A stretch of 63,436 bases of DNA, filler included, from Vezdaea acicularis (lineage: Eukaryota), in the NCBI GenBank assembly GCA_026025075.1. It is 7 parts of 7 records of this genome, joined end to end, with 100 filler letters (N's around TTAATTAATTAA, not from the genome) between each part and the next. Parts side by side here need not be neighbours in the genome. Positions count along the whole stretch, not along the records: positions 1 to 10,289 come from JAPEUI010000259.1; 6 more parts are not named here. One strand, given 5' to 3'. The notes beneath the pieces were generated by a model. The model saw only the letters and a program-made list of their open reading frames with translations. It was not told where the DNA came from and searched no databases. The stretch's first letter is position 1. Every line of letters starts with the position of its first letter. Positions 1-63,436 of the stretch are shown in pieces. The translations under genes and the position numbers were made by a program.

Positions 1-1838
1 GTCCTCCGCCCGTTCTCCTCATTGAGGGGCATCTTTTTCTGAGCGTCTCACGGCTCGAGATCGAACGCGCGCCCGGATCTCGCCCTCGAATGTTTTAGGT
101 TTCGCTCAATGGTCTGAGGATGCTTCCCAATCAGGCACGGCGGTCGTCCAGATTGCACATCGATCCTTCGCACGGTCCACGGCTTGCCTCCAGCTCGGGA
201 GGGGAGAAGACGATCAGGGTGTCTAGAGTTTGCGCATGTAGGGGCCCCGTACCGTGGATGGGCGCTCAGTAAGGTTTCAGGCACATATCCGAGAGGCTCG
301 GTAGATGTCAGGAGCAATATAAAGGATACAGGAATGAGGAAGTGCCCAAGGGTCGAGCGGTGGTGCAAAAGCTAAACTCCGGCAAAAAGCAGTTGGTGGT
401 GATGAGGAGGAGGTCGTAGCTCGGTCAGGAGGTAGGTACGTGGGCACGCGTGTGTGGGGTTTCTTTCTTGCTTGCTACTCTGGCCAGCCAGCCGAGAGGG
501 CCCATCAGGGGTCGGGCGGTTCCTGGCAGCTTTCGCGACGAATCAAAAGCAAAACAGGCACGACAGGCACGATTGCGACGAAAGCCACGCCCGCAAATAT
601 AGCCAGCAGCCAGCCGCGACCGTGATTGGATGGGGAATTATTGATTTCGCATTGATTTTTTCCTTCTGGAAGAGCCCGCGATCGATCTCTCGTCGGATGG
701 GGGGGAAAACGCACGACGAGAACAACTTCGCCCGATGACCCGTCCATCTCCGTCCATCCCCTCCGGCCCTTAAGAGGTTAAGAAGGTAAAGGAGGAGGGG
801 GACGAAGAGAAAGATAGAGAGAGAGGGGGTGTTACACACAGCGCCCAAACTCGCCGGGATCCCTCTACCAGCCCCAAACGCACCAGAAACCATTTAGAGT
901 TTTTATTCATCGCGATCTCCGATTTCTTGCTCACACCACACAGTTTCACTCGTCCGACCGAACAAATGCATTGCCCCGTCTCGACCCATTCACACCCCGC
1001 GCTGCTACACCCTCAATCCCCCATCCCCCATCCCGCCAAGCAATACTGTCTATATACCCGTGCCAACCCCTCTCACGATATCCCAATTTACCCGTAAGCT
1101 CCGAGCTGACCGCCCCCACCCCCAAAGGCCCGCGCCCCTCGCCGCAGTAGCACGCATGTTTCAAGTTCGCAGCACCGGAGAGGTCAGGGCAGAGGCGAAA
1201 GGACGAAAGAACCACCACGACGAGAACACGTGCTCGCCCCCCATCTATCCATCCAACCAGCAAGTGGTGACTATTCCATCATCGCACCATTTAGCATACA
1301 CGAATCAGTATTCTGCGTTTATTGATCAGATGTAGAAAAATTGGCAATGCAGCAGCTAAGCGTGCCCTCGTGACCGTACAAGCACCCGACCAGCTTTCTA
1401 CTGCTGCCCGCGCTTACCCTCGCGCCCCGCGCGGCTATGGATGCGGAGTTGGGAGGAATAAGAGTATTATAGCAAGCATGGCATAGCATACCCAAGCACC
1501 AGAAACCGAGAGGGACACATTGCGAGAGACGGGACAGGTAGATAGACTAAAGCGCACAGAAAGGGATAGAACTTGGGACATGCTGAAGCGAAGGAACAAT
1601 TTAAATGAGAAAAAAAAACATTAACGATGATGGTGAGAACAACATGGTATCATACAACCCGATCCAATCCTTCCGCTTACAAGGCAGTCCTGCAAAACAA
1701 AACATAAAAGAAAACTCCGGGATAGTTGTACAGATCACGGAAACGCCGGATTAGAACCAGAACAGAAGAGAGAATCAGAGAGACGAAGAAGACCCCCATC
1801 AACAAATACAACAGCCCCCTCCTGACCTATCTATCCCC

Positions 1839-4800
1839 CTACAGAAACTTCAACGCGAGCCCGGACCCCGCCTCCCCATTCACACCCCCCAGACTATTTC
1901 CCCTCCTCCTCGCCCTTAACTCCTCCGCATCCCAATCCACCGCCGCAGGCGGCATGGGATCGACACCCGGATACGGCGTGCGTGGATTTTGGTGGTGGTT
2001 GTGGGGGTGGTGATGAAGCTTAAACTCCTGGCGCTCGAAGCGCTCGACGATTTCGCGGCGGTGGCGCTGAGCCTGTTCTTCGTCGGCGAGCGTCGACTGC
2101 TGCGCGGGGTTGAGGGAGGAGGTGGGTTCGGGGTCACGCTCGCCGAGGAGGACGAGGCCGTTGGCGGTGGAGAAGCCGGGGCCGGACGAGGAGCGTTGCA
2201 TGTCGCCGTCGGATCCCAAGGGTGGGGTGGAGATAGTGGTAGTGGGCTTTTCGGGAGCGGACCAGCCGCCGATGCTGTTCAGGGCGTGGCTTGGTCTGCT
2301 CGTGGATTTGTTGCTGGTGAGTGGCGGGGTATGTTTCGTGTCGCCGTTGCTCTCGCCGTCGCGGCTGGCTTGGGTGGGGTCCGTGGGGCGGAGGTACGGT
2401 GAGATGAGCGGTCGTTCGCGGGCGGGCTCGGAGTCGACGACGGAGGTTTCGGATTGGTGGGAGACGTCCCGGGATAAGGGCTGCGAGGTGTAGCCTGTGA
2501 AGGTCCCGGGGCGAGCGTAGTTCGCGGTGAGACCATAAGAGGGCAGGGTTTTCTTGCGAGAGGCAAGTTGATAATTCTCGTCTTGACCATCGGGAGAGCG
2601 TCTCTGCTGCTGTGATGGCGGCGCTGGAGGCGGTATCTCTTCAAAGCGGAGTGGCGCTCTGTTTGGGCCTTTTAGATTCTGGGAAATACGGTAAGGTGTT
2701 CTCGCAGTGGCCATGGGCAACGAGAGCTCTGGGATGTTAGAGTCTGACGCGTGTAGCTGGTTGCTGTACCTCAGCCCGGGTGAAGAGTTCGAGGTTCCTG
2801 GGCGGTTCTCCGCATCAGTCCTTGGAGAGCCAAGTGGTGAGGGCCCAAGCTGTTTGCGGAGACTTGAATCGGAGAGGTCGTGCGATGATGGTAACGCGGC
2901 TTGTTCGGAGTCGGAATCGCTTGTAGTTGGCGAAGTGGCCACCTCCTCTTCCCGGGCCCTCTTGAGGAAGGCGGCACGGAAGACGTCGAGGGCAAAAGAC
3001 GTGCGGGATTGGCTGGACGGCCGCCGGTCTTTCGTCGAGCCATTCTGCCCAAGCTTGGGGGATCGTGCGTTTTGAGCAGCAGCTAAAGACGCTTCAGCCT
3101 CCGATCTTGCCGTTATCTCGCTGCTGGTGGAGGGTTTATTACCGATTATATCAGCATTGGCAACTACCCGCGCGAGCCCAATTCCTGGGGCGACTCTAGG
3201 GAAAGTGTGGATCCACGATGGTGGCATTTGATCCCTTCGAATTTTCCGGTTCTGGACAGTTCGATGTTTATCCGGTTCTTGTTCTCTAAGCTTAGTAGTC
3301 AATGGTTCGGTGCGACTCTTCTCATCAAGGAGAAGAGAACCGGGATTCGGCGGAGCTCTTGAAGTTGATCGTGGCGAGGGTGTCTTCATGTTGACTCTCC
3401 CGGGTATGTCATCATCGGTCATGTAGCCAGATTCGTCGATCACGTCAAGGTTTCCATATCTGTCCAGAAATCCGCTGTTGCTCATCTTAGACATCGGCGA
3501 GTCCGTCCCAATGCTCGCGGGCGATTCGAGGTGCATGCGATCGTGGTCTATGAGCATTGTAGTATATGTTGGAATGATTGACAAGGCCGACAGTTCTGGG
3601 GTCTCAGGGCCAGTTTCAGGACCGGTACTGGATGTGCTGCTGCCTCGATCAAAGATCGATGAGCCAGCAGCAATTGCCTCTTGCGATACATTCGGTGTCC
3701 TCTTCTGGATCTCCTCTCCGATGGCGTTCAGCGTCTTCTGTAGGCTTGCCCGTACTTCGAGTAATCTCTCATTCCCTTTCCTTGGAGCATAGTGATCCAG
3801 ATGGTCCATCAATTGCTTCCCATTGACCTCGTACTGACGGTAATCCGAGACAAGGCCCGTCTTAACGTTAGCTTTGATCTTATTGTTAGCCTCGTAGTAT
3901 GACCTTTGGAAGACTTTGACGGCCAGTTCCAGCCAGAAGACCAGATCATCGACACTTCTCAGATCGTCGATGCAGAACGCCTGGACCACGCTATGCACTT
4001 TCAACATGTCAATCGTACCGACTGTACCAGTCATACTGCCACGCTCCTTCTCAGATATAAACGGGTCCGGCTCAGTGTTCCTGTCGACCAGAGCATACCT
4101 CAGCAGAGTGCTGATGGTGGCCGAAAGATCCGGCTCGCTATCATTGTCGCGAGCTTCCGTAATCTCGATACCTCGCTTAGCAAAAGCTTTAGTGCCAAAG
4201 TGGACCATTTCGTATGGTATGTGCCTCGCGAAGAAACAAAGGACGTTGATCAGATCGCGGGCTGGCTTATGGCCATAGGTTATGATGTCCTCAAAAATGT
4301 CCCTATACGTGTCTTTGATCTTTTTGTCTGGCGAGGACTTGAAATGATAACGTAATATCGAGTCGGCTAGCCCCAAGGTCTTGATATGTCGGCCTTTGGC
4401 GTGTATCCACAGAGGAAGACATTCAGTCCTTCTCACAATCTCCAAAGCTTTTTGCTTCTCTTCCTCCCCTGGATGCCTTACCTTGAGCTCCTCAAAAAGC
4501 ATCTTCACCGCCTCAGCCTCATCCAGAGGTTTAATCTGGATTGCTTTTGGATAAAGCAAGCGCTTGCTTCCCTCTAGGTTACGGTTGACCGACGTGAGAA
4601 TGATGGCGCTGTCACTACTCGACGGTATGAACTTTTCCATGTCCGTGAGCTGGTCATCGTAATCGATCGTGAGACCATCAAACACCAGGAGCCATCCATG
4701 TCTCTCTTCGAACCAATCTTTGATCGCTTTCACGAAATCGGCTTTCTCTGCCTCGTCGTGGAGCGTACGGGGATTCTGGAGGGAATTCAGCGCCGATTTC

Positions 4801-6932
4801 TCGGCAATGTTCCAAAACCCTTCCCAGATTTCCGCTTTCGACGATGCTTGAACCCAGAAGACTCCTCCGGGAAACTTGTGGCGGTTGCCAAAGACATATT
4901 GACGGGCGAGATAGGACTTACCACCCCCAGGGAGACACCACAGAAGCACGCAGGCAGAACGTGTTGCCCGAACCGTCTTGTTGAACAGATATGAATCAAG
5001 CTTCTTGAGCTCTTTTTTCATGCCAAAGAACACGTTATTCTCTATGAACCCCTGCGGCACCGCCCACGGAGGTGCTTTGGAATCTGTTGCAGATGGCTCG
5101 ATATCTGCTACAGTCTCGGCTGGCGTCACGCTCACGCGCGACGAATTCTGCTCGGGTTCTGGAAGTGCAAGCGACGATTTTGATTTTTCTACATAATGAA
5201 ACCAAAAGTCAGCCAAATCTGACTCGAGATAAAATTGCTGAGATAGCAGTCATCAAGCATTTTCGTATAAAAGAGAGAAATGGTTCGGAACGGAAAGCCA
5301 TGATATAGATCTTTTTGCAAAGTGGAAAAACGCTAAGCAATGACTTTGTCCCGATCATCTTCTATCTCCTCGATTTCGAATGGTTCTTGAGACCGAGTGC
5401 GGAAAGGATTGCCGTCGTTACGCAACCTACCATACGTTCCCGTCGAATCCCTATCAGACGCATCTCCCACAGGGACACCTTCTATCTGCCTTGGTTTAGG
5501 CGAATCGACGTGATTCCCACTATTCACATCATCGCGTCGATAGTTCGAATATTCGGAGTTGTCTAATCTGTCTAGGGGAGTCATTACATCAGCCGTCTGC
5601 ATTCCACTAGAAAGTGAACATCTCCAACGGATCACATACCACCACCATATGCATTCATGGCATTATTATCCCGCCTACGCTTCCTTTCGTTTAGCTCCTG
5701 GCGCCAGTAATTTCTAACCTTGGGCCCAGCCGCTTTAGCATATGTTTTGATGGTTCCCGCGACGAGTTCAAACCCCGGAGAGATATCAGAGGCGAATTTG
5801 CACATGCCGGTGTGATTTGCCTCGATACCGGCGTAGAGGCAGCCGGGCAGGATCGTGCCCGCAGAGTCCTCATCCACAACCTGCCCGTATAATTAGCGAA
5901 ATGATTCAAGGAAATCCGCGTAATGCCGATGACCTACAAATGCCATGCCGACTTTCCAGATATCAGTCTTCAAGTTCTCGTGAAATAGATACATCGAGAA
6001 TCGCTCCATGTAGTTTCGGAAGTCAAGGTTGATGTTGAGAAGAGTCTCGGAATTGGAAGCTAATGTATTCAGGAGGTTGTGATCAGTGTCGAGGATTTTC
6101 TTTGGCATGACAGCGCTAGCCACTCTTTGCAGAAGCAGCCCGAATTCCGCCTTTTTGGCGCCATTGTGTGGCGTGCCTAGAAAGAGAATGCCGGAGGTGG
6201 AGACGAAAACGGAACGCTCGTCTTCGAGAGAAAGCGCGGTAAGGCTTGCAGAATAATTGAGAGCCTGCGAAAGAGTTAGATCGATAGCAGTGTTGCGCTT
6301 GGGGCTGAAACTGACCCTTTTGATTAGGATACCCCCCAGCGAATGGCCAATCCAGATGATTGGTCGATCGGGGCAGTCCCTCAGCTATTAGGCAAATCAG
6401 AGATGAGTGGACTTTCTTGACGATGGGATCCAGATGACTTCACACGTACGGTTCGATTTGCATTCACCGCGCCCACCAACGTCTCGGCATGTTGGTGGAT
6501 CATGTCCGATGTCGCCTGCTTCTCCCCTCCAAAGGCGACGACGTTGGCGTTGTAGCCGTACACCAGAATCCTCACCTTCGTGGTTCCCATGATCTCTGGG
6601 AGAAGCTCCGCGGGCCAGAAGACGCCATTCTCCGCGGTCCACGTCTCGCGCGGATGTCCACCAAGGCCATGGCACAGGATGATACTGCACGATCGATTAG
6701 CACCCTGACCGCCATCAAATCCGCGCCCGTCACACTCACTCGGCGATCGCGTCCTTATCCTTGTGCACCTCGGTCAGGCCTATGTCCCTGATCTCCAGTC
6801 CCGCCTTCGTCTTCGAAGTCTGGCGGGGAAGTTAGCGACCGTCGTTGCCGTAAGGCGACACGAGTTTTGCGGGGTTCGAGGGGACAAGGCAAAAAAAGGG
6901 TGGCCAGTAACTTGAACTTGCAGACTTACCAT
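1839..6932 (-). CDS. NLR-like protein: N-terminal SesB/PGAP1/DUF676-type alpha/beta-hydrolase, NB-ARC domain, long disordered C-terminus ('LipA and NB-ARC domain protein' type)
   Basis: Exons read from splice signals: 6932-6930 (ATG only), 6819-6740, 6684-6450, 6384-6316, 6264-5938, 5880-5640, then 5571-5431 and/or directly 5188-1839. Hydrolase motifs IILCHGLGGHP..TW..FWP..LLP, RILVYGYNA, nucleophile elbow GHSLGG, LFLGTPH, FHE, ANHTGMCKF. NB-ARC: Walker A-like CLPGGGKS, Walker B WLLVFDGL, IILTS, CLPLWI, VHSVVQ at the MHD position. Confidence 0.85.
5333..5571 (-). CDS. Possible alternative terminal exon ending a short hydrolase-only isoform (…EPFEIEEIEDDRDKVIA*)
   Basis: A 68-nt intron 5639-5572 (GTATGT…CTGAT…CCCCTAG) joins in frame to an open frame ending in TAG at 5335-5333. 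Confidence 0.55.
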
Positions 6933-7371
6933 GGCTGGTCCTCTGCGGAATCGCAGAACTCGAGGTTCGAGGATCGCCGCTACTGCTAGACCGATAACTT
7001 TATCTCTTATATGCCTCTTGATTCGGCCGGCGCGCAAGCTGCTGTTTTGATTGTGTATGAACGACCGTGCGGCGCCAGGACGGCCGAGGAGTAATAGTGT
7101 CGGCTGCGGCTCCGAGACGAGATGGTAAGATGATCTGTGCACGCTCGGGGTGTCTCTCCTCGGCGAGACCTGCCGACTCCCAACGCTTCCTCTTATGAAG
7201 AGTGATGAGGGCGATCTAAAAGGGCCGTATGCTCTCCCGACCGAGCCCCAGGGTTGTTAACCCCGCCGCACTGTCCGGGGAATGCAGTCACTAGTAAGTG
7301 ACTGTTTGAGGCCCGCTAGGGTTATGGTCTCACACAGGACGGCGCGGGGTTTGCCCTCAAGGGTGTCAGCC

Positions 7372-7373
<2 letters not shown>

Positions 7374-7408
<35 letters not shown>
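7374..7408. repeat. Poly-C tract (35 nt)
   Basis: Uninterrupted C run read directly. Confidence 0.95.
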
Positions 7409-7409
<1 letters not shown>

Positions 7410-7571
7410 CCAACGGTGTGCCTGGGACGCCTGGTCTACTATTAGGCCACAAAAGACGGCCGTCATTCATGCGCACTGTGATATTGTCATACACATTCCG
7501 TGCTTCCCCCGGTCACGATGCTCAATCAATCACCATCCTGATCAGGCCCCCTCCCAATCTATTCATATCCA

Positions 7572-7799
7572 GCGTTGGTCGTAAAGGGGGCGACGAGGAA
7601 CAAGACGGTGCGGCTGTGCGACAAGGACATCCTGCGGGAGCTGCTGCGCCGGGCCGAAAATGGATCCCGGGACGGGGGAGACGGCGCAAGTCAGCCGAAG
7701 AGGCAACTCCCCAGCCTTACGCAACCACGACCAATGATCATCTGCCCTCCTCCATCACCCTACTCCTCTTCTTTCATCCGACCAGGCTGCTTCCTCTAA
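7572..7799 (+). CDS. Possible small coding exon or gene fragment (VVKGATRNKTVRLCDKDILRELLRRAENG…)
   Basis: Strong G/C bias at third codon positions in one frame, preceded by a pyrimidine-rich CAG. No start codon or family recognised. Confidence 0.25.
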   Translation, partial: ALVVKGATRNKTVRLCDKDILRELLRRAENGSRDGGDGASQPKRQLPSLTQPRPMIICPPPSPYSSSFIRPGCFL

Positions 7800-8004
7800 G
7801 ATGGAGGCCCGCGAGGCCGTACGCGTATACTTACCAGCTTCACATGAAAGGTCGTCGTCATCACTGTTGGATTACTGTGGTCTATGTGACGGCCAACATC
7901 TTCGAAGTTCGTTCGAGATATTACCAAACGCTCGCGTGCTCTGGACCTCGAGCCTTACATCTTACTTTGCCGCCTGAGGGCTTTAGAGTTTGCGGCGTCA
8001 ACAC

Positions 8005-8259
8005 CGAGGCGGTGTTCAAAAGTCTCGCATACGCACACAGGCGAAGCGAGGTCACCCTTCTAAAATCGGACGATGTTAAGGAGAGTAGAGCGGCGCCATA
8101 ATTAATCAAATCTTCTTGTGATTTACAGTATACATTGGGGAGCAGTTGCAGTGTACAAATGCAGAGTTCTGGAGAATTTCGGCCATTTTTTGGTGCTTCA
8201 ATAGGGTTCCGCAGGCGGCCGATTACTTTGCGTATGCGAGACTTTTGAACACCGCCTCG
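8005..8259. mobile_element. MITE (non-autonomous TIR transposon), 255 bp
   Basis: Perfect 31-bp inverted repeats CGAGGCGGTGTTCAAAAGTCTCGCATACGCA (8005-8035) and its reverse complement (8229-8259). Flanked by the direct repeat CAC (8002-8004 and 8260-8262). No internal transposase frame. Confidence 0.8.
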
Positions 8260-9943
8260 CACCCTTCTGGCCAAGTGTTCTGCTTGGCGTCTTTTCTATT
8301 TTTCCGTTCAGCATGTTATACAGCCATGATTTCTCTGTCCTTCCACATGGCTGCCTTCTGTTGCAAGGCGGCTCCTGACCTTTTCTTCCTGGTAGAGTCG
8401 CCCTGTCTGGCGACGTATACAAATCCCGCCGGAGCGCGATGACAATGAGAACATTTCGCAGTCACGCCCCGTCTAGCGAGGTCAATACTAATGTACCGAT
8501 GTATGCCCTATTACCACAACCGGGCTTTCGTCGCTCGACATGCTGGCCGCGATGTTTATCGCTCGACTCGCAAACATCGTATATGCTCCTGCGCCTCCTC
8601 TCGTCTCATCCCTCTGAATTCGAGGGCGTTAAACAGCTATCTAATCATCACCTACTCATACATCTGGGGCGGTAGGAGGGTTTGTTTAGGCAAACAATCA
8701 TCTTCGAGTCCAAGGAGTCGTTTACGAGGCGAATCTCGAGCAAACACAGATAAAGACCTCGAAATGGTTCGGTACGAAGACCCAAAGTATTGCACTCATC
8801 GTCTTTCCTACATTGCTCGTCACTTCGTCGTCGGGATGTCCTGAGACAGAGTCTGCCCTTCCTGAACGCAGAGTTTCTTCAGAGCCTCTGGTGGGCTTCC
8901 TTCATGCGTATTGAGTCATCCGCTTAGCATTTTTACCTTTCAATGCGAGGCCGAATGTCTAGAACAAGGCCGCGCATTCCGCCCTTCTTAAACGGCTGGT
9001 AAACCCTCAACACATCATTACATTTCTTCAATTCAGCGCAAGACCAACGGACGGTGCGTGCAATAATCCTCTCCCTTGATCTCTGCCCAAAATTCTGCAT
9101 AAAGCATCCCCTTCAGGTTCGTCGGGCTTTGCCATAGATGCCCAAATATGCCGGTCATCAAATACGATGGAATATTTATAATGTGGCTTGATGGCAGGAA
9201 GCATTCAATACCCCAGCCGTATTCTTTCTCATTTGAGAGCGTTATGCGGCTCTAGCGCTTCGACACCCTCGTGTCAGCCGCACGGAATGAGGCTTTTCAA
9301 ATGGCTTATCTTATCCGATCCCCATCCTCGAGATTCGCGAGCAGAATCTTGCTAAGAAATGGCACCCTTAGGGGTAGTTTGATGGCAGACGTCAGCAGAC
9401 GACTTATGTAGGACTATGAAGTTTAGGATCATACTACCACTCCTTCTCAAAACCCCCATGTTGTGAGCTCCACTCGTTCCATATCTGACAACAGTACCAA
9501 ACCAAAAAACAAGTGACCTTCCATATTGTAAACACAATCACATCTCCCATCAATGCATCACCAGGAACCCCCCAAAGCAACGACAGCCCCTATCCACACA
9601 ACATCCCGAAGCCTACACCTAATCCCACCCCCAATCCCCTAAATACAAAAAATCCAGCCACGAGCAATAGAAAAGCCTGACTTCTCCACAAGCTATGACG
9701 CAGCAGACCGCATGCCGTCAATCATCTGGCTGTCGAACAATTCATCTGCTGGGGAGGTTGGAATTTCATGGTGACCTATGTGCTGTGGTGGAGTGTTGCT
9801 GTAGCGGTAAGAAAGCGTGGTCTCACGATGCACCCAATAGATAGATGTGTTTGTAGCTTATCCTTCTTTTCTAAACCAAAAAATTGTTTATAAGATACAT
9901 CCACGCCATGCAATGCCCTGCCCTGCTCTGCTGCGCTACCACG

Positions 9944-10219
9944 CTACCCCCCCGCCCCGAGTAACAAGAGAGGCGCTACGTGTTTCGCGAGATTAAGCCC
10001 AAACAGCGACCCAAAGAAAAGGACGAGGAAGAGGGGGATAGGCAGGAGGAGGAACTCGGTGTGGTTCAGGAAGGGAAGGGCTGGTGAGTGAGGAAAGCTG
10101 TTAGTAGGGGATGTTGTAGCGGGGGGAGGTGGGGCGTACCGTTGTAGCCTAGAAAGGTGATGATGGCGTAGTAGCTGAGTGCGACTAGGTAGAGGGAGTT
10201 TCCTAGGAGGAGACAGATC
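9944..10219 (-). CDS. GMH1: UNC-50/Gmh1 family Golgi membrane protein, last two exons (5' part lost at contig end)
   Basis: Exons 10219-10140 and 10080-9944 give ICLLLGNSLYLVALSYYAIITFLGYN/ALPFLNHTEFLLLP…SLFGLNLAKH…*, matching the UNC-50 C-terminal FLGYNALPFL motif. Not in the ORF track. Confidence 0.85.
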   Translation of the reverse strand, partial: DLSPPRKLPLPSRTQLLRHHHLSRLQRYAPPPPATTSPTNSFPHSPALPFLNHTEFLLLPIPLFLVLFFGSLFGLNLAKHVAPLLLLGAGG

Positions 10220-10257
10220 CTGTGGTTGCGGGTTTAGGTTAGGTAGAGAGAAAGGAA

Positions 10258-10289
<32 letters not shown>

Positions 10290-12068: not shown

Positions 12069-14206
12069 TCACATCCTATAGATAGAGGTTAGCGATTACA
12101 TCCGATCATATTGTACGTTACTCAAACTGACCTCTCTACAGGATTCAGACCCAGCATCACCATGCCGTTCCTGAGCACCTGACGCGCGCTCTCGTAAAGC
12201 GCTAGCCTAGCTTTCCCCAGCTCCCTTTCCTTCCCCACGATCCATAAATGATCGTATGAGCTACTCAGCATATGCGTCATCTTGAACAGATACGTCAGCA
12301 CCGTGACCGGTTCCAGCGTCTTCAGTGTCTGATTGATGATATCGGGCCACTGGGCCAGAACCCTGACTAGGTCGACGGCATATGGCTCTTTCAGGAGCGA
12401 CAAATCTGCCGTAAAGAGTTCTTCACGTGGGATGCCTGCCTTTCGCGTGATGGAGCAGAGACGCGCGTGTGCGTACTGCAGGTAGGGACCAGTGTCACCC
12501 TCGAAGGAGGTCATCCGGTCAATGTCAAACTTGTAGCCGTTGACGCGCTTGCCGGCCATATCTTGCACCATAACAGAGCTTATGCCCAGAGTGTCCGCTA
12601 CTTCTTCAGGCTTGGCTACTTGCTCGTATTTGGCTTGGTTCATGCGCATCACATCGTGCATTTTCTCTGCGACCTCCTTCAGGATGTCGTCGAGGAATTT
12701 GACCGTTCCTTTTCGAGTAGACATGCCTTGTACCATCCCGAAGGTGATGTGGGTACATTTGTCCGCAATCTCTTTGTGGCCCATCAGCTCCAGGATCTTG
12801 AAGAGTTGGGCTAGGTGCAGGTCTTGCTGCGAGGCCACGACATATATCATCTTGTCGAAATGGTATTTATCATAGCGCTCGGTAGCGGCGGCAATATCAC
12901 GGGTGAGATAAAGGCTTGTGCCGTCCTTCTTTCGAACAACGGCTTTGCCCAGTTTCTTCGAGTGCTTCTCGAGATTTACGATAACAGCGCCTTGTGATTC
13001 TTCCGAGACGCCAGACTCTTCCATAAGCCTCGCAGCGGCAGCTATACTCTCAGGCTTGACCATTGACTCGCCGCTATATTCATCGTACTTGATGTTGAGG
13101 CGAGCATAGGTCTGCTTGTATTTTTCGATGCTGAGGTCTCGAAACCGCTTCCATAGTCCCAACGCCTTCTCGTCCCCATCTTCCATCCGCTTGAAGTAAT
13201 CTCGGGCAAGCCCATTTTGACTTTTGTTTTCCAGCTCGGTGACATCCTCTCCTGCTTCCCTCTTCTTCTTAATTTCCTCTTGCTCCGGCTCCGAGATCTT
13301 ATTTATCTGGACATAAACGTCATATAAATGGCCAATCGGATCTTCTTCGAACTTTGCCTCGTCTCCAAACTTCAAGAAGCCGTTTGCGAGTAGCCCGAAC
13401 TGCCTCCCCCAATCGCCAAGGTAATTCATTCGGATGACATCCCATCCTGCGCCCTCATATAGGTTTGATAAGAAGCCACCAATAATTGTTGACCGAAGAT
13501 GTCCCGCATGAAACTGTTTTGCAATGTTTGGTGACGAGAACTCCACTATAACCCGCTTTCTTCCTTTGCTAGGATCGCTTGGATCTTTCATACCGTTATG
13601 GGGATTTAGCCCGAACTTCTCTCCCTGAGTCAATATCATCTGTATGACCAGCTCAGCCAGCTGCTTTGGCTTAAAAAAGAATTGTAGAAATGTTGTTGCC
13701 ACTACTGGCTTCTCCACCAAAGGACTTTCGGGAAAGTTTGCTGCCCATTCTTTTGCCAACTCGACTGGTTTCTTGCCCTTGACTCGAAGAGCAGGGACAG
13801 GAAGCACAAGATCGCCTTTGTCGAGTGTCTGTGTCCACGAGAGCGCGTTGTACACAATACCCCACTCAACGCCCGTGACTTTGGTGAGCAACTCCGTAAG
13901 ATGCAGGCGGTAGATGTCGACGGGATTGAGGTTGGGATGAGCCGTCGGTGAAGAGGGGAGAGAAGACACGCCTAGGGCAGATAGTTGGTGTGCGAGTTCT
14001 GACCGCTTTGGGGATGTTCCTCGGGGCTGCGGGGCTGCCATTGTGCAAGTGGATGAAAGGGTTCGTTGTCTAGACGCGCGGGGGAAAGTCCGTTTGGTTA
14101 TCAAATAGCGATGCAAACTATACGATGTACATAAGTTTTGCGAAGAGAACGATTTATAGCCGACTTTTCTAAGAAGCACTCCACAGGTGATATCGATTCT
14201 TGGCAT
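12069..14206 (-). CDS. RARS: Arginyl-tRNA synthetase (class I), probably both cytosolic and mitochondrial
   Basis: EFSSPNIAKQFHAGHLRSTIIG (HIGH region), NYLGDWGRQFG, MSTRKG, GDTGPYLQYAHARL. Terminal intron 12131-12076 gives the conserved …VERM* end. In-frame ATGs at 14206 and 14041. Confidence 0.97.
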
Positions 14207-14443
14207 CAATGCCAGGTAGGAGCGGGAGGTGAATGTAAGTTTAATGAGTCAGAGCATATCAAAAGTTGCGAAGCATGAATACCCTTCGAACCACAACCTC
14301 GCTTAGAACGGTAAGGTAGAATGATTATTTGCAGCAGTCAGTCACGGAGTGCTTATTTCGCAAGATTTTTTTTAGTTAATATATACTCTATCCGACAGGT
14401 AGCTTGAGGTTTAGACCCTGATTTTTTCTGTTTGTTGTTGATC

Positions 14444-28195: not shown

Positions 28196-29284
28196 TCATG
28201 CGCTCATCCATACCCAACTCGTGGCACAGCCTGCACCAATTCGAGTAGGGATTGGGTCAAGAGAGGGATCTGTTCGTGGGATCGTAAAGCTATTCCAACG
28301 ACCCTTTACATCTCCCTCTTCCGTTTCATTGCCACAATTACCATGCTCACCCCAGCCCCATGCTATTAGCGAGGGGTTAAGAGTCAAGGCGACCACATGT
28401 TCGCTCCCAACAGCGATGCTTCGTAGCAAAGGCAACTTAGGTGGTGTAAGCTGACCGTGGTCATCGCGGCCCCATGAAAGTAGCTTTCCCGATGAGAATA
28501 ATACGAAGACGCTTCCCCAGGAAGCGCCAACGCTCTTCCAATCACAGATATTTGCAGGACCTCCTGACTGGACACCCCATTTGTCAGAGCCTAGTATAGA
28601 GTACTCGCCGCAATTCTGATCTCCAATAAGAAAAGTAAATTCCCGACCACAGACAGCGCGTTTGACTTGGAAGTTAATGCCTTCAAATCGACGCGGGGAC
28701 TGTAGTATACCTGATGGTAGTCCTAGTTGCCCTTTTCGGCCGCTGCCCCAACCGTAGACATCACCATTTGATAAAACCACGACGACATGACTTATACAGC
28801 CGGCAATGTCAACTATACTATGGCCCTCAGGCGGAAATGATGGTACTTCATGGAAGCTTTGTGCACTTCGAACGCCATCGCCAAGGCCCAGTTCACCCTT
28901 CAATCCCACACCCCGGGACAAAATCCGATCGTCTTCAGCTACAAGGAATGATCCTTCCCATGTAGCAGCGATTGCTTTGTACTTCTGTGACTTTAAGCCA
29001 CTTGACAACCCGTCAGGGGCAAGCTGTGAAAAGGTCATAGTCCCAACCAAATGATTATCATCTAGGCCATGTCCGTCATTGACAGATCCACCGACGGCCC
29101 AAACCGAACCATCTGAAAGTAGAACGAGGGTGTGGCTACCACCAGCTGCTATTTGCACAGGTTCTTCTGATATTGTGGACGAAAATTGAGATGGTGTTGG
29201 TATAGAAACATCTACGCAACTTCCATTCCCAAGTTGTCCTGCGCCGTTGGAACCAAAGGAGTAGAGTCGCGATTTGTAAGCCAT
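28196..29284 (-). CDS. ATS1: RCC1-repeat protein, Ats1/Kti13 (Elongator-associated)
   Basis: Single-exon 362-aa ORF: LYSFGSNGAGQLG, AAGGSHTL, YGWGSGRKGQLG, SWGRDDHGQL, AVGSEH, WGWGEHGNCG, GAGCATSW. Confidence 0.88.
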   Translation of the reverse strand: MAYKSRLYSFGSNGAGQLGNGSCVDVSIPTPSQFSSTISEEPVQIAAGGSHTLVLLSDGSVWAVGGSVNDGHGLDDNHLVGTMTFSQLAPDGLSSGLKSQKYKAIAATWEGSFLVAEDDRILSRGVGLKGELGLGDGVRSAQSFHEVPSFPPEGHSIVDIAGCISHVVVVLSNGDVYGWGSGRKGQLGLPSGILQSPRRFEGINFQVKRAVCGREFTFLIGDQNCGEYSILGSDKWGVQSGGPANICDWKSVGASWGSVFVLFSSGKLLSWGRDDHGQLTPPKLPLLRSIAVGSEHVVALTLNPSLIAWGWGEHGNCGNETEEGDVKGRWNSFTIPRTDPSLDPIPTRIGAGCATSWVWMSA

Positions 29285-29536
29285 GTATAAGAAGAACTAG
29301 AGGTTGACGTGCCAAATCATTATTCCTGTCAAAGTCATAAGTTAGACAAATGGCGATCACTTTGTATCATCAAAACACCTCTGCTCGCCAAGACCCCAGG
29401 GGTGAAGCCCTAGCGCACTGGCTCGCTTAGCTATAGTGTTAGAATTTCGCTGCTTCGAATAATTATGCACGCCTCACAATAGACTAAATTTATAGCTTCC
29501 TCTACACAACGAGTCTCCTACGGTCCATTAATCATT

Positions 29537-41466: not shown

Positions 41467-43293
41467 TTACAAATCATCTTCGTGTGGCTCTGGGAGCGGG
41501 CCAGTCGGATATGGCACAACAAGCTTCTGGAGCTCCTCATAATTCTCATAAGGCGGACAAGCGATGGCTCGAATGATAGGAGACTCCTCCTCTTCATGGA
41601 GCGATGTCTTCTTCAGTTCTTGGCTGTCGAGTATGGGCTCGTTCCCAATTTGCTGGTTGGTACCTTGTGCCGCGCTTTTCGCTATATCCTCCTCATCGTC
41701 CTTCTTCTCGTTCTCCTCATCCTCCTCAGCGGAATCACCACTGTTCGATAAAGCGTCGTTTGGCTCAATGTGCAGTCGATGAACCGCCTCCCAGTCTTCA
41801 CCAGGTAAGGAGAGGGCAGTGAGAAAAGTTGAGTCCTCTTTGTTTGCTGACGTCGAATTCATCTCCTGAGATTGAACACTTGGGTCCAACGCGGCTATTG
41901 CGGCGCCCGGATCTTGCTTCTTATTGCGTTTCTGCACCGCTCGGCGATGGCCACGACTCTTAAGATGCTTCTCCCAGTCCTCCTTCGTCACAGCGGTGGT
42001 ATTGCACAAGTTGCAGCTATTCCTGACCCACATGTCCCTACGATCACTGAGATCATAGTCTCTCCTCGGCGTCAGCAGCTCAGCGGCCAATGTAGAAAGA
42101 CCCTTAGGATCCGGAAGGTCCTGCCCCTCAAGGAACCGTCTCGTTATATCAATCGCAGGCTCTGCGACATTCTCGGACCACTTCTCTAGATCCGTCGTAT
42201 CAAGCAGAAAGATATTCTTCTTGGCCCCAGCACTCGCAAGGGCGTTCAAGAGCTTGATGCGGATCCATCGGACCTGGCGCTTCGCATACTGTCTAGTCGA
42301 AGCCCTGACGCGGTCGATGCTTTGGAGTAGCAACGCTTCTGACGCGTTCCCGGGAGAGCTTTTGCAGGCTTCGAGGTACGGTTCGAATTCTTTGTAGCCG
42401 ATGGAGACCCAGATGCCGCGCGTTCGATCGATCTCCTTGCCCTCTGCCACTTGCCGCTTGAGGTGCTCGTGCAGGGAGGTAACTTCGGAGATGAGCCCGT
42501 TCTCAAGCATCGTCCCGACTCTGTTGTCTAGTCGAGCTTTCAGCACGGCATCCGTGGCGTGTGGCCAGAAGAGTAGTGTCGGAAACCGAAGTTTGGCGGC
42601 CGCATCGGTGGTCTGAGCCGGCATGGTCCCATCCCCTGAATCCTCCTCCTCCGCCGTCGACGATCCCCCCTTCTTCTGCGCGTCGTAGACATCCGAAGCC
42701 TTCCTCCCCGTGGTCAGATAAATCTCCAACGACCTCTGAATCTTCCTCCGCTCATTCGGATGCCACCTCTCCGCCATGACCGGATCCACCCTCCTCAACT
42801 CCTCCAACACCCTCTCCGTCTCCTGCTCCAGCACCGGCCACCTTTCCTTCATCTCCCTCACCCCGCCGCTCCCTACCATCCTACCCCCAAAAAGCAGCGC
42901 TTGAGTATAATACCCCGTCCCACCCACCACAACCGGCACTCTCCCCCTCCCCCTGATCTCCTCAATAACCCTTCCCGCCCTTTCCACGAACTCCCCCACC
43001 GTCACCCCCCCTTCTTCCAGCCCTACCTGGCCTAGCAAATGATGCCGCACCCCCCCTCGCTCCTCCACGGGTATCTTATTCGTGATGATCGGCAGCCCGG
43101 AGTAGAGTTGCATCGCATCGCCATTGATGATCTCCCCGTTGAATTGACGCGCTAGTTCCACGGCGAGGCGAGACTTGCCGGTCCCGGTTGCGCCGATGAT
43201 GGCGAGTAGGGGTTGGTGTGGGATGGAGTGTGGTGCTGTCATGATGGGGAGGTGGCGGGGGATGTGTCGGATGGTGCTAAACAGCTGGTTCAT
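41467..43293 (-). CDS. MOD5: tRNA dimethylallyltransferase (Mod5/Tit1) with C-terminal zinc finger and acidic extension
   Basis: P-loop GATGTGKS, EIINGDAMQLY, IITNK, VVGGTGYY, SIGYKEF, TRQYAKRQVRW, finger CNLC…HLKSRGH. In-frame ATGs at 43293 and 43242. Confidence 0.95.
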   Translation of the reverse strand: MNQLFSTIRHIPRHLPIMTAPHSIPHQPLLAIIGATGTGKSRLAVELARQFNGEIINGDAMQLYSGLPIITNKIPVEERGGVRHHLLGQVGLEEGGVTVGEFVERAGRVIEEIRGRGRVPVVVGGTGYYTQALLFGGRMVGSGGVREMKERWPVLEQETERVLEELRRVDPVMAERWHPNERRKIQRSLEIYLTTGRKASDVYDAQKKGGSSTAEEEDSGDGTMPAQTTDAAAKLRFPTLLFWPHATDAVLKARLDNRVGTMLENGLISEVTSLHEHLKRQVAEGKEIDRTRGIWVSIGYKEFEPYLEACKSSPGNASEALLLQSIDRVRASTRQYAKRQVRWIRIKLLNALASAGAKKNIFLLDTTDLEKWSENVAEPAIDITRRFLEGQDLPDPKGLSTLAAELLTPRRDYDLSDRRDMWVRNSCNLCNTTAVTKEDWEKHLKSRGHRRAVQKRNKKQDPGAAIAALDPSVQSQEMNSTSANKEDSTFLTALSLPGEDWEAVHRLHIEPNDALSNSGDSAEEDEENEKKDDEEDIAKSAAQGTNQQIGNEPILDSQELKKTSLHEEEESPIIRAIACPPYENYEELQKLVVPYPTGPLPEPHEDDL

Positions 43294-43928
43294 CCCAGCT
43301 TTCGTTTTGAGGACATCGTCTGCGGCGGCCTGGGTAGGCGGCAGCTTGTGTCCGATTACCAATATACGGTCTTCAATATGCGGCCGTAGGTGCGGGTGGG
43401 TTTGTAAGTCGCAGTGATTGATACGCGTCCGACTAATCTGGCAGCGCAAGTCGTTTGTAAGGCAGGCTTCCAAGAAAGTGGTTCACGGGCAGACCTTGCG
43501 CTGAAGTTCGGGAGAGGTGAGAAGTTCGGTAGATCACTGCCTAACCGCCTCGGCCGCGTCGCTAAGCCCGCCAGCCAAGTCCCGCTTTCTCGCCAGCCCA
43601 GCTCCAAGTCTTAGGCGCGACGCGACGCAACCAGATATGGACCACGTGCAATGGGGTGGGTTCGTGGATTAGAAAATAGGATTCTCGTTATACATATCTT
43701 TCTAGACATACGACCTGCTCTAAAGCGCTAAAGTGGGGTAAAAAAAATAACTAGGATAATCGTAGTGAGAAAGATAGGAGGAAAGAATTGAAGCGTGCAT
43801 TACCCCCCACCTCCTCCCCCTTTCACTCTCCAAAAAGAACATTTAAAAACCCCCAAACCCAGTCTCCCCAAACCCATCTAGCCAAACCGCCTACTCCCCC
43901 CCCCCTTCCCCTCTTCTGCGCACATCCC

Positions 43929-60902: not shown

Positions 60903-63188
60903 TTATATGAACGAGTTCATGCCGTTGGTCTGCACATCAAAGATCTCGTTTCTCCATCCACGTGTTGCATTGTCGTCGACTACCTCTCCAGCTCTCGCTG
61001 CTTCCTCGTTCCACAGTTTTACCACGCTGCCGGGAGCATACACACCAGAGAATATGCCTTTGCTCGGTGTGACTCCGACGCTTGTATAAAGATCTGGATC
61101 TTCTTCCGGTGTCAAACGCGTGATGATAGCCTTGACAAATGTACGGATGTCTTGTGGATCTGAGATTCGGGTTGCTCGAAGTCGCTCGCGAGCAAAGAGC
61201 AACTCCCGGTTTGCGGCGTGCAGCCCATCAGCGATGGCATTGGCCAGTTGTCTCTCCATTACCTTGCGGATGATAGGGCGAAGAATGGGCTTGAAAATCC
61301 AGGCAAGGCAAGCAAACTTAGACTTCCGAAGCGAATAACTCAAGTGATGAATGTGAACTCGCACAGATTTAAGAGTGAGAATTTTCTCGAGGCGTTCCTT
61401 GCCTACCTCCACGTCAATGTGGATATCAATTCCACGGTCATCGACCTCAAAAGAAGCAATTCCCTCATCTGCTAGTCGGAAGATTCCCGAATGAGCTCGA
61501 AGCCAGAATCCAATCTCGTCAGCTCGCATCGAAAGACCATCCATTTTGATAGTGACAAAGCTCGCCACGTTAGAGACTGTGTTAAATTTCGCTTTGCGGA
61601 TTTCAAGATCGTTCTTCGTCTCCACGCGTAATCTGAATGGCAAGAATGATGAGTTGTTGACATTTCGGCCTGGTTCAAGGATGAGATTCTCGAGAAGGAG
61701 ATCGATCTCGGGTACCGAGACTTCTAGTCGTGGAATTGGGACATATTGTATAGCCTTGATCAGAAGAGGGATGAACACTTGGAAAGAATCATTGATCAGT
61801 TCGGTATTTGTCATTGCATTGACCGGAGAGAGGAGGTTGAAAATCTGCGAGGTCGTTGCAAGGAGCTTCGAGACGTCAACGTCATTCCAAACAGAGTCAA
61901 GTGTGATCTTGGACTGCGTGAGTAGCGCTTCGACGTCCTTCCTAAGAGGCGAATTATTGCCGACGTCTTGAGTCTTTCTACGAAGTTCCTGAACTTTGTC
62001 GCCAGCATTATCGAAGAATTCGGGATCCGTGAGAAGCCTCTGCAAAGATGTCGCGACTTCGCCCATAAGACTTTCAAACTCTGGGTCCGACTGAGAGTGC
62101 TTCATGACCGTATTAAACCTATCCTCGAGCTTCTCCCATTCGTCATGGTCCCCAAAGGAACTCATCAGAGACCAGAATTCCTTCACAGCTCTGTCGAGTT
62201 CTTCATTTGTGCTCAGATCATCTTGAAGGGTTCCAATGGTCTGGTCAGCGGCACGGGAGTAGACCTTAGCGTAGCGTTGCAGGAGTAGTCCTATAGTAGA
62301 GACGGAGTCAGAATAATCATTCCGCTTCCGAAGCTTAATGACGGCCTGCTTTAGCCGGTATAGTAGAGTCTCCTTCTGCTGGCCAGACACATTATCGACC
62401 AGGCTCAACTTTGCCTCTTGCCCCGTTTTCGCTACGCCGTCAGCTACGACTTTCGAAATCTCAGTGATCTCCCCGTTAAGATCATCTGCTGAAGGTGGGG
62501 GGCCTTCCTCGGAGCCTGGCTCCTTGATTGCCCGGGAATCTTGCTCAGAGGGTTCTATCTGTTTCCCTGCTTCCTTTGCAACGTCTGATACGGTATTGGC
62601 AGTGTCGGCGAAGACCTGTCGTCCAATTATATTCAAGTCTGAAAGGAAAAGTCGGAAGTCGGAGTTGGTCAAGAGCAAGGTGCCAACAGTTCTAAGGCTT
62701 TCATATGCTGTTATGAATATTAGCAACGAGTGCAAAGAGCACGTGCAGAGCTGCCGCCTACCTGCTGAGGCATCTGCCTTGACTCTAACGGAAGACGCCG
62801 TCCTAGCCAGGTCTTCAACATCTAACGACACCTTCGACTTGGACATGAACCAAATAAAGTCTTGAATCTGATCCTTGTCATTCTTGTTTCGTAAAAGCTC
62901 GATGAACTCTGTGACCCAATTCCTTGAGTACTTAAGCAAGAGGCGTCCAGAGTCACTAAGCTCGGGGTTCGTTGCATTCAAAACATCTGACGCGAGTATA
63001 GTTCTTAGATTGATGATAACTTGCTCATTCGAGGGCATGTACAGCTTGGAAAGAGCTCTTAGCATCTGATATGAGTGCAGCTTCTGATGCACCCGCCTTT
63101 GTAAGGCCGTATCATCCTCATATTGGGGAAGCAATGGATCAGTATCATCGCCTCTGCGAGACTTTCTATTACCGAAGCAGGACGACAT
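60903..63188 (-). CDS. TULIP/BPI-like (DUF4449-type) lipid-binding-fold protein
   Basis: 761-codon ORF including a likely 54-nt in-frame intron (62761-62708). Motifs MPSNEQ, LLLTNSDFRLFLSDL, YVPIPRLE…DLLLENL, FRLADEGIASF, and KSKFACLAWIFKP. Confidence 0.85.
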   Translation of the reverse strand: MSSCFGNRKSRRGDDTDPLLPQYEDDTALQRRVHQKLHSYQMLRALSKLYMPSNEQVIINLRTILASDVLNATNPELSDSGRLLLKYSRNWVTEFIELLRNKNDKDQIQDFIWFMSKSKVSLDVEDLARTASSVRVKADASAGRRQLCTCSLHSLLIFITAYESLRTVGTLLLTNSDFRLFLSDLNIIGRQVFADTANTVSDVAKEAGKQIEPSEQDSRAIKEPGSEEGPPPSADDLNGEITEISKVVADGVAKTGQEAKLSLVDNVSGQQKETLLYRLKQAVIKLRKRNDYSDSVSTIGLLLQRYAKVYSRAADQTIGTLQDDLSTNEELDRAVKEFWSLMSSFGDHDEWEKLEDRFNTVMKHSQSDPEFESLMGEVATSLQRLLTDPEFFDNAGDKVQELRRKTQDVGNNSPLRKDVEALLTQSKITLDSVWNDVDVSKLLATTSQIFNLLSPVNAMTNTELINDSFQVFIPLLIKAIQYVPIPRLEVSVPEIDLLLENLILEPGRNVNNSSFLPFRLRVETKNDLEIRKAKFNTVSNVASFVTIKMDGLSMRADEIGFWLRAHSGIFRLADEGIASFEVDDRGIDIHIDVEVGKERLEKILTLKSVRVHIHHLSYSLRKSKFACLAWIFKPILRPIIRKVMERQLANAIADGLHAANRELLFARERLRATRISDPQDIRTFVKAIITRLTPEEDPDLYTSVGVTPSKGIFSGVYAPGSVVKLWNEEAARAGEVVDDNATRGWRNEIFDVQTNGMNSFI

Positions 63189-63436
63189 GGCTATGAGTAT
63201 GAGATGCGTCTTTCATCTAAAACTATCAATAGTGGTTAAATTAAGGAGGTAAACCCATAATGTACCCCGCATTTTCAGTGGTCAATGAGCAGGTTTCAAC
63301 ATTGCGTGCCTTAGTAGTTCCATGGCGACCACATCACTACGTCAGTTCTCGATCATAGCTCAGAAATAGCCGCATGGTTCTTGCAGGGAGTTTTCTGACC
63401 ACGTGAAGCAAATGCGATGGATTTGTTCGTATTGAG

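Follow-up and report, generated by a model that had tools for sequence, protein, structure and literature searches.

Two proteins are obtained from one gene in the yeast cases of PTC7, which has a translated retained intron, and SKI7/HBS1, while in plants alternative splicing of tobacco N and Arabidopsis RPS4 gives truncated isoforms of nucleotide-binding oligomerisation domain (NOD)-like receptors (NLRs). Among fungi, a free SesB hydrolase has reportedly been found in Nectria, and in the described sesB cases the fused and free hydrolases are separate genes, the free effector being tied to its NLR by an amyloid motif. Here we describe a minus-strand gene within a 63,436-nucleotide (nt) stretch of the Vezdaea acicularis genome (GenBank assembly GCA_026025075.1), in which a SesB-type hydrolase is joined to an NB-ARC-type ATPase. 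Our results support a model, to which we assign a probability of about 0.7, where this one locus would give both the fused protein and a free hydrolase through the splicing or non-splicing of its last intron, intron 7.

The gene resembles the sesB-type fungal NLRs in using a lipase/esterase-type hydrolase as the N-terminal module of a STAND (signal transduction ATPase with numerous domains) protein, and in the theme of one effector domain occurring both fused and free. In one survey (Dyrka et al. 2014, PMC4986451), sesB-like hydrolase domains form a major class of fungal NLR N-termini, and the sesB annotation was merged with those that Pfam gives for alpha/beta hydrolases. Unlike the sesB cases, one gene would here give both forms, and the tail is acidic rather than amyloid-like. 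Unlike sesB-type NLRs, the protein has no WD40, ANK or TPR repeats and is a conserved orthologue among housekeeping genes.

As with PTC7 and SKI7/HBS1, an intron would be kept as open reading frame (ORF) and the unspliced mRNA would give a second functional protein. The PTC7 intron is read into the downstream exon, whereas here the intron would supply a new C-terminus and stop, removing two thirds of the protein. The plant N, RPS4 and FPA-target genes share with this model that intron retention or termination keeps the N-terminal domain and drops the NOD module. They belong to another kingdom and carry a TIR domain rather than a hydrolase, and their RNA isoforms are demonstrated, whereas the present case draws on sequence conservation alone; the conserved intron-encoded peptide is, however, a stronger evolutionary signature than is usual for truncated plant isoforms. 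That FPA causes transcription of Arabidopsis NLR genes to terminate prematurely is reported in PMC8116057. The same architecture and colinear sequence are found in orthologues named 'LipA and NB-ARC domain protein' from Aspergillus, Penicillium, Histoplasma, Colletotrichum and lichen-forming fungi. This family is known only by its annotation name; no literature on the splicing or function of these orthologues was found, and a literature search found no retained-intron isoform of fungal SesB/LipA-NB-ARC (hydrolase-NB-ARC) genes. Within the available portions of fungal NLR papers, alternative splicing is mentioned only for a micro-exon case in Tuber. Nor was a description found of the intron-encoded tail or of the disagreement between split and fused gene models in this family.

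The last intron of the fusion gene

All coordinates refer to the window, meaning the entire 63,436-nt stretch, which consists of parts of seven records, joined with N filler between them; positions 1-10,289, where the gene lies, come from JAPEUI010000259.1. The gene occupies 6932-1839 on the minus strand and has eight exons, with borders set on canonical splice signals. Joined, the exons give a 1481-amino-acid (aa) open frame with one terminal stop (TAG), and the product is colinear with annotated relatives of 1415-1554 aa. The features around the proposed switch are:

5880-5640, minus strand: exon 6, the last hydrolase exon, ending at a phase-1 donor G/GTATGT (5640/5639)
5639-5572, minus strand: intron 6, 68 nt, phase 1, GTATGT...GCTGAT...CCCCTAG, last base 5572
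5571-5431, minus strand: exon 7, 141 nt, 47 codons, phase 1 at both ends, coding for the linker
5430-5189, minus strand: intron 7, the last intron, 242 nt, phase 1, donor G/GTAGGT (5431/5430)
5431-5336, minus strand: intron-encoded tail, 32 codons counted from the split Gly codon, GRLRNDGNPFRTRSQEPFEIEEIEDDRDKVIA
5380-5354, minus strand: conserved acidic motif FEIEEIEDD
5335-5333, minus strand: tail stop TAG, which closes the 397-aa free-hydrolase reading
5213-5208, minus strand: branch-like GCTGAC of intron 7, with the acceptor TATGTAG/ beyond it (last base 5189, phase 1)
5188-1839, minus strand: exon 8, STAND/NB-ARC-type nucleoside triphosphatase (NTPase), followed by a helical region and a long C-terminus rich in Ser and Pro
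1841-1839, minus strand: stop codon TAG of the fusion

Intron 7 (5430-5189) would act as a two-way switch point. When it is spliced (5431>5188), the product would be the 1481-aa hydrolase-NTPase fusion. When it is left unspliced, either by retention or by transcript termination within the intron, the ribosome would read 32 further codons, adding the conserved acidic peptide ...FEIEEIEDD... and stopping at the TAG at 5335-5333 to yield a 397-aa free hydrolase. This shorter reading retains the whole hydrolase and the linker and stops within intron 7. Unspliced RNA would, on this model, be both made and translated, and its ratio to the spliced form would presumably be regulated. The linker encoded by exon 7 is variable and probably disordered.

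The splice signals on which the original prediction was built are all present on the minus strand: both donors (5640/5639 and 5431/5430), the acceptors at 5572 and 5189, the GCTGAC branch and the TAG at 5335-5333. It had also proposed a frame of about 79 codons with an acidic end, and read-through from the exon start at 5571 indeed runs for 79 codons, 47 in exon 7 and 32 past the donor, to end in ...EPFEIEEIEDDRDKVIA. The acceptor at 5189 was likewise correctly placed in phase 1, entering an NB-ARC frame that lacks an upstream ATG of its own; the open frame at 5249-1839 is 1136 codons long, with no ATG ahead of the conserved FFGM where the NTPase region starts. Both architectures may then come from one locus, as had been proposed, through retention of intron 7, while the other proposed route, alternative 3' splicing (5640>5188), found no support and is discussed below.

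Intron 7 stands apart in length, its 242 nt comparing with 51-110 nt for the six other introns of the gene. The GC content of the tail is 0.48 against 0.37 in the remainder of the intron. Retention of intron 6 would lead to a stop after 2 codons, and read-through in the same gene extends for 49 codons in intron 1 and 140 codons in intron 4. RNA folding of intron 7 gave no signal (z-score -0.32).

Conservation of the tail over homologous loci

A scan of metagenome contigs with an NTPase alignment yielded 80 fungal loci, and in 71 of the 80 the hydrolase lies 290-670 nt upstream of the NTPase; these 71 reduce to 42 distinct linkers. In 29 of the 42, a simple pattern search located the motif within an open frame that ends at a stop, and inspection of the other 13 added the tail for L042, L047, L049 and L048. 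An in-frame tail of 25-55 codons (...LPAPE...[YF]E[VI]EE... and then a stop) is thus present in 33 of the 42 distinct linkers. The open frame between donor and motif is 17-40 codons long, and the stop lies 3-39 codons past the motif. Coding conservation of the tail in orthologues had been named as a test when the switch was first proposed, and the tail is indeed kept in frame and followed by a stop, with codon-like substitutions. A profile built from 29 orthologue tails, the window excluded, ranked the window piece 5662-5336 first among 2281 six-frame pieces (E 0.0066, against 0.34 for the next).

The tail begins at a phase-1 donor G/GTRNG in every tail-bearing locus. This donor is phase-compatible with a conserved GCTGAY...GTAG acceptor that opens the NTPase frame in all 29 loci tested, across introns of 146-392 nt (homologous introns overall span 123-392 nt), while a phase-compatible GTRNG donor past the motif occurs in only 1 of the 29. 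Over 39 loci the donor has G at +1, T at +2 and G at +5 without exception and A at +3 in 37. The residues encoded there differ between loci (GK, GR, GM, GT, S-), and fixed donor bases with varying residues therefore point to selection on the splice signal. Exon 8 is conserved as protein right from the acceptor (NST.., LSNS..SIEP, PPGF.PN), and in 20 of 39 loci the stretch from the acceptor to the NTPase start contains no in-frame ATG.

Substitutions within the tail are of the coding type. Over 23 pairs of related loci, which are not phylogenetically independent and of which the distant ones were aligned via their peptides, the proportions of nonsynonymous and synonymous differences are pN 0.229 and pS 0.558, and the differences per codon position are 207/195/386. 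For the pair L001/L003 the ratio of nonsynonymous to synonymous substitution rates (dN/dS) is 0.09 in the tail, with 0 insertions or deletions (indels) against 14 in the remainder of the intron. Close pairs show no indels in the tail, whereas the remainder of the intron has many, of lengths that are not multiples of three. Mean GC content over the loci is 0.51 for tails and 0.41 for the remainder of the intron. By best named relative, the tail-bearing loci belong to Lecanoromycetes, Eurotiomycetes, Leotiomycetes and Sordariomycetes. The anatomy of the gene, the conservation of the tail over homologous loci and the coding-type selection on it are shown at the level of compared sequences, and the fused and free products both appear to be under selection.

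Database proteins ending in the tail were sought with a 272-aa genomic frame from a Penicillium-like locus, running from GHSLGG to the tail, against targets of 149-476 aa. The search returned 567 matches, at least 120 of them listed. By profile, the tail is present in 42 of 120 listed short proteins and ends no more than 15 aa from the C-terminus in all 42; the 18 of these with a complete N-terminus are free hydrolases of 329-392 aa. NCBI models that end in the tail come from Penicillium, Aspergillus, Talaromyces, Cladophialophora, Pyrenula and several lichens, and two carry a locus tag directly adjacent in number to that of a separate NB-ARC model (PDE_04779/PDE_04780 and Q9160_001166/Q9160_001167). 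A profile search of 1.84 billion cluster representatives found the tail in only 3 of 146 newly listed representatives, a low yield because each 50%-identity cluster shows one member.

Both P0122 (1330-nt contig) and P0125 (1305-nt contig), full-length calls of ORF type, run into the tail. Each lacks upstream introns that close genomic relatives have: P0125 two out-of-frame introns seen in L018, and P0122 the first intron and the in-frame intron 6 seen in L019, which fits what might be expected of spliced RNA that keeps only its last intron. The 'lgn' proteins resemble plain ORF calls, as 26 of 26 NTPase-side examples start at an internal Met or inside the long intron.

Gene models of close species disagree over the segment. 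An acidic motif akin to the window tail (YEIEEP, YTVEEFE and similar) is present in 6 of 39 linkers of annotated relatives and absent in very close species. Within Aspergillus section Flavi, closely related models include a fusion with the motif (P0046), a fusion that skips it (P0049) and a free 370-aa hydrolase with the end ...YEVEEPPEILYASKRF (P0147). The presence of the motif in P0046 and its absence in P0049 suggest that predictors call one conserved segment either exon or intron. Comparison of P0046 with P0147, which depart from each other at a Ser-Lys, points to a distal second donor in that lineage, as judged from the proteins alone.

Several other features of the intron were considered. 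A conserved AGTCAGA element lies just upstream of the long-intron branch site in L001, L003, L018, L019, L030 and the window (5225-5216). The CAG at 5219 was rejected as a conserved alternative acceptor, being phase-compatible in the window and not in L018. An apparent enrichment of TAYRTA (14 of 32 loci against 4.2 expected) proved to be an artefact of the conserved acceptor TAYGTAG, as without the last 10 nt of the intron it occurs in 2 of 32 loci against 3.8 expected. Comparison of the post-donor ORF length with the other two frames is a poor control since GTAAG/GTAGG itself sets a stop in frame +2.

Alternative explanations and points against a free product

Best surviving among the alternatives, though unlikely, is that the gene is spliced constitutively to the 1481-aa fusion and that the conserved intron segment is an RNA element, for example a purine-rich GAR enhancer, or a decaying remnant of a linker exon. 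Both splice sites are canonical, the GAA/GAG repeats of the GAR-rich core motif could act as an RNA signal, and the motif is skipped by 33 of 39 full-length annotated relatives. An RNA element, however, needs neither an open frame of 17-40 codons nor a nearby stop, nor a restriction of indels to multiples of three as in the close pairs. Amino-acid conservation extends to the parts of the tail that are not purine-rich (LPAP, the aromatic residue preceding EVEE, and V/I with any third base), and the excess of differences at third positions (386 against 207 and 195) also speaks against this alternative. A remnant would not persist over four fungal classes while the remaining intron is unalignable.

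Less probable still is an alternative 5' splice site, in which a distal donor past the motif places the acidic motif inside the fusion. In the window this form would use AAA/GTCATT (intron from 5344, phase 0) and the phase-0 acceptor TCTCAG/ at 5238, a pair that is in frame, and the motif does occur in the annotated fusions P0015, P0046, P0077, P0080, P0084, P0089, P0099, P0242 and P0244. Yet GTCATT lacks the G at +5, which all 39 homologous donors share, a phase-compatible GTRNG donor between motif and stop is missing from 28 of 29 loci, and the stop always comes before the remainder of the intron. The conserved acceptor moreover requires a phase-1 donor, and the models that contain the motif are predictions which differ among close species, as in P0046, P0049 and P0147.

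The original prediction had also allowed a third product, made by joining 5640 to 5188, and a regulated linker-less fusion of this kind seems very doubtful. Skipping the 141-nt exon 7, flanked by phase-1 introns, would keep the frame and give 1434 aa, and linker length does vary widely among relatives; the frame is kept merely as a consequence of both flanking introns being phase 1, and nothing else favours the route. The intron removed would measure 451 nt against 51-242 nt for those in the gene, none of the 39 annotated relatives is entirely linker-less, L021 and L047 lack intron 6 and no conserved feature indicates skipping. Least likely of all is a pair of neighbouring genes without any fusion, a hydrolase ending at the TAG at 5333 and an independently transcribed NB-ARC gene, since, despite the split models PDE_04779/PDE_04780 and Q9160_001166/Q9160_001167, the window has no ATG from 5249 to FFGM over a stretch that is nevertheless protein-conserved in relatives, donor nucleotides are invariant at synonymous positions, donor and acceptor phases agree in 29 of 29 loci, the 144-nt gap is too small for a promoter and 40 annotated relatives of at least 1380 aa are fusions.

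A number of observations weigh against the favoured model, in which retention of intron 7 yields a free hydrolase alongside the fusion, and they join the non-independence of the locus pairs given above. In the window by itself, a read-through of 32 codons is unremarkable and not beyond chance; the tail stands above chance because it is conserved in other genomes. The LPAPE part is missing from the window tail, which scores a modest 13.7 bits against the profile. Given its canonical sequence GTAGGT, the donor may be spliced efficiently, leaving little of the unspliced form. With the intron retained, the 3' untranslated region of the mRNA would reach about 3.5 kb, and the transcript might be subject to decay; no poly(A)-type signals were found in the remainder of the intron, where they were sought. 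Nine of the 42 linkers have no in-frame motif: it is absent in L038, L039, L053, L059, L062, L068 and L071, doubtful in L072 and out of frame in L078. Among database proteins, the tail is internal, by profile, in 6 of 120 listed long proteins, and the motif also lies within the long models P0242 and P0244, so that it may be part of the fusion in some lineages. P0128, which resembles P0122 and P0125, sits on a 62.9-kb contig, and intron-poor genomes could explain such ORFs.

Seven of the loci without an in-frame motif (L038, L039, L059, L062, L068, L071 and L078) show an apparent lineage-specific loss of the short reading, and several of them keep the long intron. P0242 and P0244 are cluster representatives in which the acidic motif is joined straight to the start of exon 8 (...YEVEEPEPEF-TIASIEP...). 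Their layout is either the choice of the predictor or that of lineages with the motif as a constitutive part of the linker.

Protein family and significance of a splice switch

A single gene makes up the locus and belongs to the 'LipA and NB-ARC' family, which is conserved in Pezizomycotina. Proteins of this family begin with an alpha/beta hydrolase of the DUF676/SesB type, continue through a variable linker into a STAND ATPase of the NB-ARC type, and end in a long C-terminus of low complexity. A search with the exon 8 frame (1115 aa) found 127 relatives, at least 120 of them listed, among which 'LipA and NB-ARC domain protein', 'protein SERAC1' and 'NB-ARC domain-containing protein' are common names; precomputed domains of the relatives are PF05057, PF00931 and PF13191. 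The closest named among the matches listed are the lichen-forming or lichen-associated Candelaria pacifica and Pycnora praestabilis at 46-47% identity, and identity to relatives over the NTPase region is 31-51%. When 40 relatives of at least 1380 aa were compared with the window by tblastn, the hydrolase was covered over 6700-5635 at 36-54% identity, and the 14 listed of these 40 are colinear with the hydrolase exons and exon 8. The linker is 37-119 aa long and barely alignable in 39 annotated relatives. Upstream of exon 6 the gene is built as follows:

6932-6930, minus strand: start codon ATG, the sole coding part of exon 1
6929-6820, minus strand: intron 1, 110 nt, with GTAAGT immediately after the ATG
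6819-6740, 6684-6450, 6384-6316 and 6264-5938, minus strand: hydrolase exons 2-5, from the joined-frame model
between hydrolase exons 2-5, minus strand: introns 2-4 of 55, 65 and 51 nt
intron 5, minus strand: 57 nt

Exon 1 codes for the ATG alone (6820-6932, minus strand), and in exon 2 no ATG precedes the conserved N-terminus GLTEV. A long G/C homopolymer-like run lies just upstream of the gene at 7310-7466; in the ORF list one of its strands reads as poly-Pro, the opposite one as poly-Gly.

The labels 'SesB-like' and 'NB-ARC' in the original prediction are upheld by homology to relatives, although they have no direct Pfam match on window pieces. The hydrolase exons, scanned singly, gave no match to DUF676 (PF05057), while relatives 44-49% identical to the window hydrolase pass its gathering cutoff of 20.3 bits (P0221 35.6, P0134 22.6, P0003 27.8 and P0004 27.9 bits). 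A nucleophile elbow GHSLGG lies at 6348-6331 (minus strand), and exon 6 bears VVDEDSA and ANHTGMCKF, which hold the putative catalytic acid and His; these catalytic roles are suggested by alignment. Among 82 aligned relatives H121, G124 and G125 are invariant and H261 nearly so. The residue preceding the putative catalytic His (5814-5816, minus strand, exon 6) is Asn in the window (ANHTGM), Asp in 26 of 26 aligned short forms (D260 invariant) and Ser or Asn in other relatives. AlphaFold2 modelling of the hydrolase of relative P0221 with 82 sequences gave a mean predicted local distance difference test (pLDDT) of 86 and a predicted template modelling score (pTM) of 0.82, with a confident core at 16-315. 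Against the PDB, the matches listed by Foldseek for this model are exclusively carboxylesterases, thioesterases and lipases (E 5e-8 and weaker; target-normalised template modelling (TM)-score 0.41-0.62), and the model of P0221 is consistent with an alpha/beta hydrolase fold.

In exon 8, Walker A (PGGGKS) is at 4928-4914 and Walker B (WLLVFDG, with LLVFDG at 4691-4674) follows on the minus strand; G87, G89, K90, D170 and G171 are invariant across 28 aligned NTPase relatives. The 1115-aa frame has a single Pfam match, AAA_16 at E 0.067, while among 28 aligned family members 18 match NB-ARC (best 6.2e-16) and 27 match AAA_16. No repeat families (WD40, ANK, TPR) were found in the window frame up to E 1. 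The protein is NLR-like rather than a canonical NLR because it has no C-terminal repeat domain and its C-terminal half is Ser/Pro-rich low-complexity sequence. Other genes in the window are housekeeping: an arginyl-tRNA synthetase (12125-14248), an RCC1-like gene (28199-29296), a tRNA isopentenyl transferase (41470-43482) and a HAM1-like gene (60906-63212), all on the minus strand. With such surroundings, the hydrolase-NTPase gene is therefore not placed in a variable NLR cluster.

In the AlphaFold2 model of P0221 the linker and tail (about 320-371) have pLDDT of about 48-58, and the tail is predicted to be unstructured in this relative. Because of this prediction (pLDDT of about 48), the tail would most likely be a disordered short linear motif for docking or for control of the free enzyme. 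More speculatively, the locus might be a self-contained effector/receptor pair in one transcription unit, in which a regulated choice at the last intron tethers or releases a lipase-like enzyme and the acidic peptide serves as its handle. In such a pair, the peptide would recruit or restrain the free enzyme via the full-length protein or another partner, and the arrangement, to judge from its class-level spread, would be several hundred million years old.

Should the effector/receptor reading hold, intron 7 would be a conserved splice switch of a kind not described before in any fungal NLR-like gene, as well as a fungal counterpart to the truncated plant NLR isoforms. The many NLR-like proteins of fungi are for the most part uncharacterised, as is the control of their N-terminal enzymatic domains. 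An intron so deeply conserved and encoding an alternative C-terminus offers a concrete hypothesis, namely that an effector is supplied both tethered and free from one gene. It would also explain a recurrent annotation conflict, in which the same locus is modelled as one fusion gene, as two neighbours or as a fusion containing the motif. The combination of a long phase-1 intron, an in-frame conserved tail and a stop provides a search signature for other switches. A docking or inhibitory role of the tail, if borne out, would connect the STAND proteins of fungi with the regulation by truncated isoforms known for plant NLRs.

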